Origin: Candidatus Zixiibacteriota bacterium
GTDB lineage: Bacteria; Zixibacteria; MSB-5A5; GN15; FEB-12
NCBI GenBank assembly: GCA_022571845.1
Contig: JACZXB010000012.1
Location: forward strand, 127 to 64,126
Direction: 5' to 3'
Length of the DNA: 64,000 bases
A program made the translations under genes and the position numbers. The notes under the pieces are model-generated. The model was not told the origin of the DNA and made no database searches. It saw only the letters and a list, made by a program, of their open reading frames with translations. Shown piece by piece: positions 61,616-64,000 of the stretch. Position 1 is the stretch's first letter, and each line of letters begins with the position of its first letter.

Positions 61616-61797
61616 TACAATCCTCCTGCATCTTATCTTTATAGATTTCATTTTCTGATATCAGTTTATACGGGAGGATATAATGGATGTTCCATTTAAT
61701 AAAGTTGGACAAGCCGGACCCGCTTCAGAGACAGATAATTGACTCAGGTCATGCTAATTCTAGAGTCTTAAGAATATCCAAGGATTGCGGTTTTGTT

Positions 61798-62616
61798 TCA
61801 TTTGCATAGAGGACAACTACTACGTTTGCACTCATCCCAACAGGCCCCATAGCAGTTACTAAAATTCTCACATCCTCCACACATTTCACATTCCTCATAA
61901 ATGTGGCAACTCTTTGGCCTGGTTCCCACTTTCTTTTTTGCCTTTTTTTCCTTCTCTTTCTGTCGTTCCTTATTAATATCAAATACACGTATAATCTGAA
62001 CCCTATACATATTATCCCATCGCCTAAAAGTGATACCAATGAATTGATCATCAACTTTCCAATGATGGGTTATAATTAAGCCTCCTTTTCCATCTCTTTT
62101 GACATCAGGACCAGATATTCCATCTGATTTTGAAATTACTCTAAAAACTGAATCAGCGTGAAGACCTTTATATATTGTCAGACCTTGAATTTTAAGGCTC
62201 TCAACTTTTTCCCAAAATGATCTCCTGAAAGCAAATGATTCCCATTTAGCATCATCATAGGTGTAATCGATCACTGGATCGATTGGTCCAACTGTAATTT
62301 GAGCGATTCTATTAGAAAGCGAAGGTTTTCCAAAAACTGAAATTTCGTATTTATTAATATCTGAAGTCTCTGCCAGTAACTTGATGGAATTTACAAATTT
62401 TCTCGTGTCTTTTGGGTTACTCCAAACTTTGTTACTTAGCCAAACGAATGCTTGGCTTGAACCATATGTATCAATAACAATGTTCTCGGATAAATAATGG
62501 GCATTACAAAGCTCCACTAAAGCAGCCTCAAAACTGCTGTTATCTGCTTTAATTAATTGACTAGTAGTGCCAATTACAAGAAACACAATTAATACAATGA
62601 AATTGTATCTGTTCAT
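61798..62616 (-). CDS. secreted protein with a Lys-rich linker and a 9-Cys C-terminal tail, unknown function
   Basis: Signal anchor FIVLIVFLVIG, linker KERQKEKEKKAKKK, tail SCHIYEECEMCGGCENFSNCYGACWDECKRSSCPLCK. The gene is AT-rich. Confidence 0.65.
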   Translation of the reverse strand: MNRYNFIVLIVFLVIGTTSQLIKADNSSFEAALVELCNAHYLSENIVIDTYGSSQAFVWLSNKVWSNPKDTRKFVNSIKLLAETSDINKYEISVFGKPSLSNRIAQITVGPIDPVIDYTYDDAKWESFAFRRSFWEKVESLKIQGLTIYKGLHADSVFRVISKSDGISGPDVKRDGKGGLIITHHWKVDDQFIGITFRRWDNMYRVQIIRVFDINKERQKEKEKKAKKKVGTRPKSCHIYEECEMCGGCENFSNCYGACWDECKRSSCPLCK

Positions 62617-62869
62617 AAGATTCTCCCCTGTAAGCGCTAAGAATTATGGATTAAGATGATTATGACCAGTACGAAAATCAAGCTAAATAGTCAAGAATTT
62701 GGCTTTCGAGGCATACCGAATTGCCTGCAATACGTTGCCTTGTAGAATTTGGCGCAACTGCACAATCAGCTATTGAATTTACTTTGGATTCGAATCGCTT
62801 AGATTTCGCTGACACTTAGCCGAAAGAGGCAAATATATTTGCCCGGCATGGGGTTAAGAAATTTAACAC

Positions 62870-62926
62870 TCCCCTGTAGCTCTGTTGGTAGAGTCCCGCT
62901 ATGGTGGCATTAATCAGCGGGTCGTA
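62870..62926 (+). pseudogene. tRNA-Asn 5'-half remnant (no T-arm or 3' acceptor strand)
   Basis: tcccctgtagctctgttggtagag matches the acceptor and D arm of the intact gene. It is then followed by a disrupted anticodon region and unrelated sequence. Confidence 0.7.
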
Positions 62927-62965
62927 ATGATCCACTATTTATACTTTCCAATCTCTTAAATTTCG

Positions 62966-62993
62966 TTGACATTTAACCGAAAGAAGCTAATAT
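62966..62993 (+). promoter_or_regulatory. sigma70-type promoter of tRNA-Asn
   Basis: TTGACA (62966-62971), 16-nt spacer, TAATAT (62988-62993). About 33 nt upstream of the tRNA 5' end. Confidence 0.5.
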
Positions 62994-63026
62994 ATTTGCC
63001 CTGCATTGGGTTAAGAAATTTGACAC

Positions 63027-63099
63027 TCCCCTGTAGCTCAGTTGGTAGAGCAATTGACTGTTAATCAATGGGTCGTAGGTTCGAGTCCTACCGGGGGAG
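63027..63099 (+). tRNA. tRNA-Asn (anticodon GTT)
   Basis: Manual fold: acceptor TCCCCTG/CGGGGGA, D arm GCTC..GAGC, anticodon stem ATTGA/TCAAT with loop CTGTTAA, T arm GTAGG-TTCGAGT-CCTAC. No encoded CCA. Confidence 0.9.
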
Positions 63100-64000
63100 C
63101 ATAACTTGCATTTGTATCCCTTCAACGATGTGGTTGAAGGGTTTTCTATATGTGGGACATAGGGTTCTGTCGTTTAGAGTACAGTTCGATAGTAAAGACT
63201 TTATGAGATCGCGCTTTTCACTTGAGTTTTGTTTAACATAAAGAGAGTGAGCGTTTTGCGCCAGTTCTACAATTTCCATGCCCTCTTCGACATAATCTCT
63301 GCTATTTGTATCAAGACTTTCAATTCGGTCGCTAATTGTATCCTGTTCTGCTCGCCATCGCTTAGACAATTCAATCCAATACTTTTCGTCAATTATGCCA
63401 TCCAGCCTATCTTCATATGCCTTATCTAAGCGTATTTGATGTGAATTATACAGGCGTTTCAGACGCATTAGCTCCGTTTGACGGTACAACCCTTCATTTC
63501 GGCTACTCTCTTTGAGAGCCGTGACTATCCAATCGGCTGCTTCGTCGTCAAGCTGCATCCCTTTGAGCTTCTCTGCAAACAAAGTGTCTATTATATCTTC
63601 CCTCACATACGGCTGTTCACACTTGCCACGTCCGCTAGTGCAGTGGTAGCAAATGTACTTCTCTTTCTTAATTTCAGCTGTTATTTGACACCCACAACGT
63701 CCGCAAATCAATAACCCAGAAAAGATAAAAGTATCCTTTCGAGTTTTTGGCTTTCCGTCTCTGCGAAGCAGTGATTGTACTTTGTCAAACAATGATCGAC
63801 TAATCAATGGTTGATGGTTGCCGGAGTACCTTTCATTCTTCCAAATGAACTCTCCAAAATAGAAGGGGTTCTTGAGAATCCACTCAACCATGCTTTTGGA
63901 TAATTGCATCCCATTTGTGCTGTTTAGTCCATCCAAATAGATCTTCTTCCTTAACTTACTAAGGGAATAATCGCCGGAAGAATACAGTTCAAATAAGTTT
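63088..64000 (-). CDS. large serine recombinase, C-terminal part (5' end and catalytic domain beyond the right edge)
   Basis: The frame stays open upstream of the track start to base 64000 (..NLFELYSSGDYSLSKLRKKIYLDG..). Recombinase domain ILKNPFYFGEF, Zn ribbon CGRCGCQ...CYHCTSGRGKC, and a coiled coil. The last 12 nt overlap the tRNA 3' end. Confidence 0.85.
   Translation of the reverse strand, partial: NLFELYSSGDYSLSKLRKKIYLDGLNSTNGMQLSKSMVEWILKNPFYFGEFIWKNERYSGNHQPLISRSLFDKVQSLLRRDGKPKTRKDTFIFSGLLICGRCGCQITAEIKKEKYICYHCTSGRGKCEQPYVREDIIDTLFAEKLKGMQLDDEAADWIVTALKESSRNEGLYRQTELMRLKRLYNSHQIRLDKAYEDRLDGIIDEKYWIELSKRWRAEQDTISDRIESLDTNSRDYVEEGMEIVELAQNAHSLYVKQNSSEKRDLIKSLLSNCTLNDRTLCPTYRKPFNHIVEGIQMQVMLPR

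Follow-up and report, generated by a model that had tools for sequence, protein, structure and literature searches.

The right end of the 64,000-nt stretch of Candidatus Zixiibacteriota DNA analysed here (the window) very probably carries one end of a genomic island that was placed at the extreme 3' end of a tRNA-Asn gene by a large serine recombinase (LSR). The window corresponds to positions 127–64126 of contig C19 in genome G000, a marine-sediment metagenome-assembled genome (MAG) of 21 contigs, 2.75 Mb and 49 tRNAs; C19 itself ends 1142 nt right of the window. Positions 63100–64000 would be the tRNA-proximal (attL-side) end of the island. In the mechanism proposed here, the large serine integrase would have inserted the island with its gene lying antisense towards the tRNA and its attachment site overlapping its own last codons, strand exchange in the last 7–16 nt of the tRNA would have regenerated an intact tRNA, and the island would have brought in a new terminator hairpin written inside the integrase coding sequence. 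A decayed partial copy of the tRNA unit further upstream (P') would reflect a separate event, older than the island insertion. The coordinates of these features are collected in Table 1.

The recombinase gene is convergent with the tRNA gene, and its reading frame remains open to position 64000 and past the window edge. Its TAG stop codon is the reverse complement of positions 63088–63090, which are tRNA positions 62–64 and lie 10–12 nt inside the tRNA, giving an overlap of 12 nt with a tRNA ending at 63099 or 13 nt with the end called by ARAGORN. Pfam searches identified Resolvase (PF00239, E = 8e-22, residues 3–150), Recombinase (PF07508, E = 2e-16, residues 173–258) and Zn_ribbon_recom (PF13408, E = 2e-10, residues 270–324) domains, leaving residues 325–481 as the region where a coiled coil is expected. 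In an alignment of 11 homologues, Ser10 and Arg8 of the YARVSS motif are invariant, as are the D79-R80 block and the zinc-ribbon cysteines C277, C280 and C305, and the N-terminal domain matches that of the TP901-1 integrase (PDB 3bvp, E = 6e-6). The protein is a bona fide member of the large serine recombinases. A preliminary description of this DNA had proposed a minus-strand LSR with a recombinase domain and zinc ribbon that ends 12 nt inside the tRNA and stays open to base 64000, together with an intact tRNA-Asn(GTT) and its TTGACA-16-TAATAT promoter at 62966–63099. Both proposals were confirmed, the latter interval covering promoter (62966–62993), leader and tRNA.

Four genomes of the genus were compared (G000 and its congeners G001, G002 and G003), and the sequence right after tRNA-Asn exists in four different versions among them. 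G001 and G002 have no LSR at the site, and their homology to G000 stops at positions 63100 and 63103, respectively. G003 is 94% identical to G000 up to position 63375 and then continues into unrelated DNA, retaining only residues 383–481 of the LSR, interrupted by a stop codon. In G002, a pilus-type operon of 5.65 kb directly abuts tRNA-Asn; it comprises two DUF4402 genes and genes for a PapD-like chaperone and a protein of 909 aa. G002 was considered as an example of the empty site and rejected, as the far side of this pilus segment bears a degenerate repeat, GCTCCCCGG; the G002 site is probably occupied by an integrase-less segment. The pilus operon of G003 ends with the same flank as that of G002, followed by ACTCCCC, a 7-nt remnant of the tRNA end, and then by other DNA. 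The position of this remnant between the later insert and the pilus segment is as expected if an LSR island had entered between the tRNA and an older segment.

The same patchiness extends beyond the genus. Among 19 tRNA-Asn loci of relatives, two carry intact LSRs (both of other subclades) and three carry relics, with none in the rest, and 12 of 19 tRNA-Asn loci in the order are without an LSR. G003, G032 and G012 possess only C-terminal LSR relics beside tRNA-Asn; a DNA search had suggested G012 as an LSR carrier, which was rejected on finding only a 69-aa relic. The recombinase is patchy here rather than conserved in all relatives, which is not the pattern of a domesticated gene. The earlier suggestions that an LSR-driven element starts at the tRNA 3' end and that the site after tRNA-Asn is an integration hotspot are both supported, by the divergence of congeners at 63100–63103, by four flanks in four congeners with one decayed LSR relic among them, and by tandem arrays in relatives. 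The LSR island accounts for the region after the sole tRNA-Asn being the most variable spot among the four sister genomes.

A complete island of this type is present in G083, where a homologous LSR (56% identity) abuts tRNA-Asn and a single further copy of the tRNA's last 16 nt lies 17.2 kb away, the two copies bounding the island. In its integrated form the G083 integrase ends in KLPRLD plus 7 residues (...KLPRLDSNQRPVD), and in the predicted circular form in KLPRLD plus 16 residues (...KLPRLDVSRTFRALLDHFRHAA); this change of the tail from 7 to 16 residues on joining of the ends would place the attachment core inside the ORF. The minimal core common to other relatives is the last 7–8 nt of the tRNA, corresponding to positions 63092–63099 of the window, and from these shortest repeats we infer that crossover takes place within GGGGGAGC (63092–63099). 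The circular junction of the window's island would consist of the far end, the core and ATAACTTGC. The T stem of the G000 tRNA-Asn reads CCTAC, where most relatives have CCAGC or CCTGC, and the MLPR-stop terminus of the LSR is read from the antisense of the acceptor and T stem. If crossover at 63092–63099 holds for G000, the LSR stop codon may come from the host T stem and not from the element. The preliminary description had the element supplying the tRNA 3' end: judging from the relatives' repeats, this can be upheld for the last 7–16 nt only, the TAG at tRNA positions 62–64 being possibly host-supplied.

Other relatives have several segments lined up behind one tRNA. In G065, the tRNA end has left an 8-nt remnant at 33.8 kb, with a relic of the left end of a second island behind it. 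In G069, tRNA-Asn is followed by 3.2 kb lacking an integrase, then by a 40-nt repeat of the tRNA and finally by the LSR. These two layouts indicate that arrays are common. The 3.2-kb insert of G069 (contig C4; L071:16600-20000, L040:1400-1510) consists of two ORFs of 527 and 462 aa. The 40-nt repeat of the tRNA-Asn 3' half in this tandem array is perfect and longer than the repeats of the LSR islands, and the CCCGCT in front of it pairs with AGCGGG in the tRNA remnant.

ARAGORN detects tRNA-Asn(GTT) as the single tRNA in the window, and it is the only Asn tRNA gene among the 49 tRNAs of the G000 assembly; the gene must therefore remain intact. The hairpin and T-run just past it could serve as its terminator and lie within the integrase gene, their reverse complement coding for the LSR motif PFNHIVEG. 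A hairpin and T-run occur in this position in all 12 relatives of the order compared, across six target tRNAs and with a few compensatory changes. Because the hairpin is also coding sequence (motif PF..I.EG), its conservation alone leaves a terminator role unproven. The 12 order relatives alone gave the hairpin as a consensus fold, and no consensus fold was obtained once three proteobacterial sequences, in which the spacing differs, were included.

Upstream of the functional gene, the P' unit retains a promoter weakened to CTGACA, a leader and the 5' part of a tRNA. Positions 62793–62869 align with 62950–63026 (87% over 77 nt, E = 1e-14), and the alignment runs on through the acceptor 5' strand and D arm (tRNA positions 1–25). 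The anticodon arm differs, being 6 nt longer and altered to a CCCGCT...AGCGGG hairpin. Similarity resumes at TTAATCA..GGGTCGTA and stops at tRNA position 51, leaving P' without a T arm and acceptor 3' strand, and ARAGORN makes no tRNA call on it. The offset from P' to the functional copy is 157 nt, and the two units of ~159 nt each stand almost head to tail with ~14 nt between them. G002 carries an orthologous and more decayed P', and in both genomes it lies in a 1.2-kb stretch that also encodes a 272-aa secreted protein, for which no Pfam hit and no paralogue in the G000 genome were found. In G001, G003 and other genera a PDZ gene is located directly upstream of the promoter and tRNA-Asn, and the 1.2-kb stretch is therefore lineage-specific. 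P' retains TCAGC in the 3' strand of its anticodon stem, the allele of nearly all relatives in the order, while the functional tRNA-Asn gene in all four genomes of the genus is changed to ATTGA/TCAAT; the promoter and leader of P' resemble only this genus's own promoter. Retention of the ancestral TCAGC indicates that the duplicate arose in this lineage before the compensatory change and is now a pseudogene.

The preliminary description had correctly reported a diverged copy 157 bp upstream with a changed anticodon arm and no T arm, and had ascribed it to successive integration or excision at the tRNA. That origin is not supported: a scar of LSR integration would be expected on the other side of the tRNA, and the copy is orthologous in G002 and keeps the ancestral TCAGC. 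The rather doubtful alternative that P' is an attL/attR-type junction left by an earlier element, integrated in the anticodon or T-arm region of tRNA-Asn, draws on the location of P' in a lineage-specific 1.2-kb insertion and on its replaced arm, TCCCGCT..TTAATCAGCGGGTCG, which resembles the junction before the 40-nt tRNA-Asn 3' repeat in G069. That resemblance amounts to 7 nt and is simply the complement of AGCGGG, and small indels suffice to derive the altered arm from the ancestral allele. The ~14 nt between the copies leave no element between them, and their matching lengths of ~159 nt resemble a tandem duplication. LSR integrations at tRNA-Asn leave 3' fragments downstream and not promoter-bearing 5' fragments upstream, and P' is therefore read as an old tandem duplicate rather than an att scar. 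From these sequence comparisons, P' most likely goes back to an old tandem duplication of the promoter-tRNA unit and turned into a pseudogene before diversification of the genus, and it is probably unrelated to insertion of the LSR island.

Table 1. Features of the tRNA-Asn locus at the right end of the window (positions beyond 64000 continue the same numbering to the end of contig C19)
Feature	Position	Strand	Remarks
1.2-kb stretch found only in G000 and G002	61735-62956		Holds 272-aa ORF and P'; absent in G001 and G003
272-aa secreted protein	61798-62616	-	Lys-rich linker, Cys-rich tail; only in G000 and G002 (88% identity)
P', decayed duplicate unit	62783-62941	+	Weakened promoter CTGACA, leader, tRNA positions 1-51
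Sigma-70-type promoter of tRNA-Asn, TTGACA-16-TAATAT	62966-62993	+	10/12 consensus positions matched
tRNA-Asn(GTT)	63027-63099 (ARAGORN end 63100)	+	CCA not encoded
Attachment core (attL), predicted	63084-63099		Last 16 nt of tRNA; matches G083 16-nt repeat, from which it is predicted for G000; homology with LSR-free congeners stops at 63099-63103
LSR gene	63088-64000 in window (C-terminal 303 codons); start ATG at window-equivalent 64533	-	481 aa, intact
Terminator-like hairpin (9 bp) and T-run, for tRNA	63118-63147	+	Within LSR C-terminal coding sequence
Ribbon-helix-helix (RHH) gene, 70 aa	64530-64742		ATGA overlap with LSR start
ORF140, open ORF of 140 aa	Runs to contig end at 65142		No Pfam hit

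Several observations weigh against an island at this site. The in-frame TAG from the T-stem CCTAC makes the LSR ORF 9 codons shorter than those of its clade relatives, and the position of crossover rests on repeats of 7–16 nt in other genomes and not on the G000 island. Searches of the whole G000 assembly by blastn-short, with the tRNA 3' half and the junction as queries, found neither another copy of the tRNA-Asn end nor more DNA of the island, all matches being at chance level (12 nt or less). No 127-nt link joins the right end of C19, 2 kb into the island, to another contig, and short Logan contigs of four marine-sediment runs contained no circle or empty-site junction. A break of the contig inside the island would explain why the far-end repeat is missing in G000. 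One match across the attL junction, C5:175060-175071, in the region predicted from synteny with G002, was rejected as it lies within an ordinary coding region. The Logan contigs did contain related LSR variants, and a truncation junction of the G003 type was seen in two marine-sediment runs; a joint 528->1601 in these contigs was set aside, as its sides are shorter than 30 nt and it is explicable by strains of the G001 or G003 type.

The absence of the far-end repeat from the assembly and the early stop at a host-encoded TAG could also mean that the LSR is a dead remnant, stranded beside the tRNA or on its way to domestication after loss of the rest of the element, as in G003; G032 and G012 likewise have C-terminal relics alone beside tRNA-Asn. 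This is unlikely given that the G000 LSR has its full length and all its catalytic and zinc-ribbon residues and is translationally coupled to the upstream RHH gene, and that the contig break would explain the missing far end. The RHH gene is a candidate regulator or recombination directionality factor (RDF), and its position next to the LSR is kept in only 1–2 other loci. On the reading of the locus as the end of an island, the G000 copy would still be mobile. That the element is instead a prophage is highly improbable: LSRs are the classic phage integrases, and integrases of phages are the best, though weak, matches in the phage collection, but the best of these is 31% identical and from unannotated contigs (named phages, 25–28% or less), the neighbours visible in the 2 kb assembled are the RHH gene and an ORF without a Pfam hit, and the complete G083 island encodes a tyrosine recombinase, regulators (an HTH_17 protein and MarR), MscS, trehalose-synthesis genes and Na+/H+ antiporters, the last three pointing to osmoadaptation, with no phage genes seen in its 17.2 kb.

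The distribution of related enzymes was surveyed in 160 genomes of the order, 69 of which contain homologues at E <= 1e-30. The LSR ORF ends inside a convergent tRNA in ~26 of the 30 loci fetched, the targets being Asn, Arg-TCT, Arg-CCT, Gln, Ser-TGA, Ser-GGA, Ser-CGA, Asp and Glu. A cross-phylum scan using one genome per species yielded at least 457 relatives, and among the best 80 (44–56% identity) ~61 exhibit the same LSR/tRNA overlap; at least 17 target isoacceptors are involved when all loci are taken together. The record labels of these relatives include Ignavibacteria, Planctomycetota, Acidobacteriota, Atribacterota, Alpha- and Gammaproteobacteria and others, and cultured carriers include Rhodopseudomonas, Bradyrhizobium, Mesorhizobium, Asticcacaulis and Sandaracinobacter. 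Target identity clusters on a tree of 100 enzymes (42 changes versus 64 when shuffled, a value as low being reached in 0 of 200 shuffles), and despite this clustering the target tRNA switches often. The G000 enzyme falls in a clade of eight with 100% support that is mostly Asn-targeting, with five members at tRNA-Asn, one at a partial tRNA-Asn, one at a contig edge and one at tRNA-Arg(CCT). As judged from these alignments and loci, the enzyme is a member of a large cross-phylum clade of serine integrases in which each subclade appears to target the 3' end of one tRNA. A public record labelled 'uncultured Ignavibacteriales bacterium' has an LSR identical to that of G105, a member of the same family as the window's genome (L047, L074), and other relatives in the order resemble records labelled Zixibacteria.

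G000 contains a second LSR island at another tRNA. Its integrase, of 572 aa (L029:15898-17616), is 24% identical to the window LSR, and its ORF ends 52 nt inside tRNA-Leu(CAA). The island measures 10.3 kb (L029:7263-17577; G000:C1:43262-53576) and is bounded by perfect 13-nt repeats of the tRNA end, ATGCCGGAGGTCG, with a third copy (12/13 match) 5.7 kb further out. Among the genes it carries are those for a sigma-54 activator, a TPR-repeat Ser/Thr kinase and a fatty-acid desaturase. At the left end of contig C11 (L070:1-227; G000:C11:1-227), the tRNA-Leu(CAA) 3' half and the terminal part of the LSR-Leu gene occur again, with identity over the first 94 nt and a 90% match over the whole 227 nt, which suggests a second variant or copy of the tRNA-Leu junction in the population.

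The outer slot of this tRNA-Leu(CAA) array is filled by a 5.7-kb chaperone-usher-like pilus operon (L029:1548-7262; G000:C1:37547-43261), bounded by Leu-type repeats. The same operon is that which abuts tRNA-Asn in G002 (G002:C9:451610-457280, L154), with the degenerate Asn-type repeat on its far side, and in G003 (contig C400, L155) it ends with the ACTCCCC remnant. The terminal 50–80 nt of the segment differ between G000 and G002. Possibly the operon is cargo without an integrase of its own that moves from one tRNA site to another. At one end of the G000 copy (L029:7215-7221; G000:C1:43214-43220) the tRNA-Asn end motif GGGGAGC is found in the orientation opposite to that in G002 and G003; as a 7-mer this could be due to chance, or it could be a trace of an inversion-type event.

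Transfer RNA genes are the textbook targets of tyrosine integrases, while the known sites of serine integrases, the enzymes preferred in genome engineering, are mainly in protein-coding genes. Hallmarks of the LSRs are a zinc-ribbon coiled-coil motif controlling directionality, short attP and attB sites with a central crossover dinucleotide, unidirectional integration and RDF-dependent excision. The window LSR has the same domain order (a resolvase domain with a serine nucleophile, recombinase, zinc ribbon) as the LSRs of phages and integrative and conjugative elements (TP901-1, A118/LI, phiC31, Bxb1 and SPbeta SprA). It differs from these in targeting a tRNA 3' end and not a protein-coding gene or intergenic site, and in having a predicted attachment core that overlaps the enzyme's own last codons. 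In phage and plasmid collections it has no close relative, being only 25–35% identical to any entry. Mesorhizobium homologues of the window LSR sit at tRNA-Gln.

In work on Islander-type islands (PMC4383910), tRNA targeting is treated as the domain of tyrosine integrases. Islands of that type are like those reported here in having an integrase beside a regenerated tRNA, tandem arrays, patchy occupancy and a displaced tRNA 3' fragment at the far end (here seen in relatives); they differ in that the enzyme here is a serine recombinase and the repeats are short (7–16 nt) and restricted to the very 3' end. LSRs are carried by a minority of Prochlorococcus tycheposons (bioRxiv 10.1101/2020.12.28.424599), and in Mesorhizobium five integrative and mobilizable elements (IMEs) have been reported to carry serine recombinases and three IMEs to sit at tRNA-Asn (PMC8627217). 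Both are integrative elements with an LSR or at tRNA genes; the clade itself, its att sites, the overlap of ORF and tRNA and the embedded terminator are described in neither bioRxiv 10.1101/2020.12.28.424599 nor PMC8627217. There is no mention of tRNA in the large LSR survey of Durrant et al. In the literature searched, LSR elements at tRNA genes are mentioned only in passing.

The locus described here is an incomplete member of this barely described clade of serine integrases targeting tRNA ends. Its compact design would let one DNA stretch act as coding sequence of the integrase, terminator of the tRNA and site of recombination. More tentatively, and as a possibility rather than a probability, the clade may be very large and formally undescribed, specialised on tRNA 3' ends from Zixibacteria-like MAGs to cultured Rhodopseudomonas, Mesorhizobium, Bradyrhizobium and Asticcacaulis, with at least 17 switchable targets, a core and terminator embedded in its own C-terminal codons, and tandem arrays in which integrase-less cargo moves between tRNA loci, as the 5.7-kb pilus operon at tRNA-Asn in G002 and G003 and in the tRNA-Leu(CAA) array of G000 may have done. 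If true, this would amount to a cassette-like exchange system driven by serine recombinases. A clade with natural targets at conserved tRNA ends would give ready-made, nearly universal landing sites, and one retargeted among many tRNAs would be a natural experiment on the evolution of LSR specificity.

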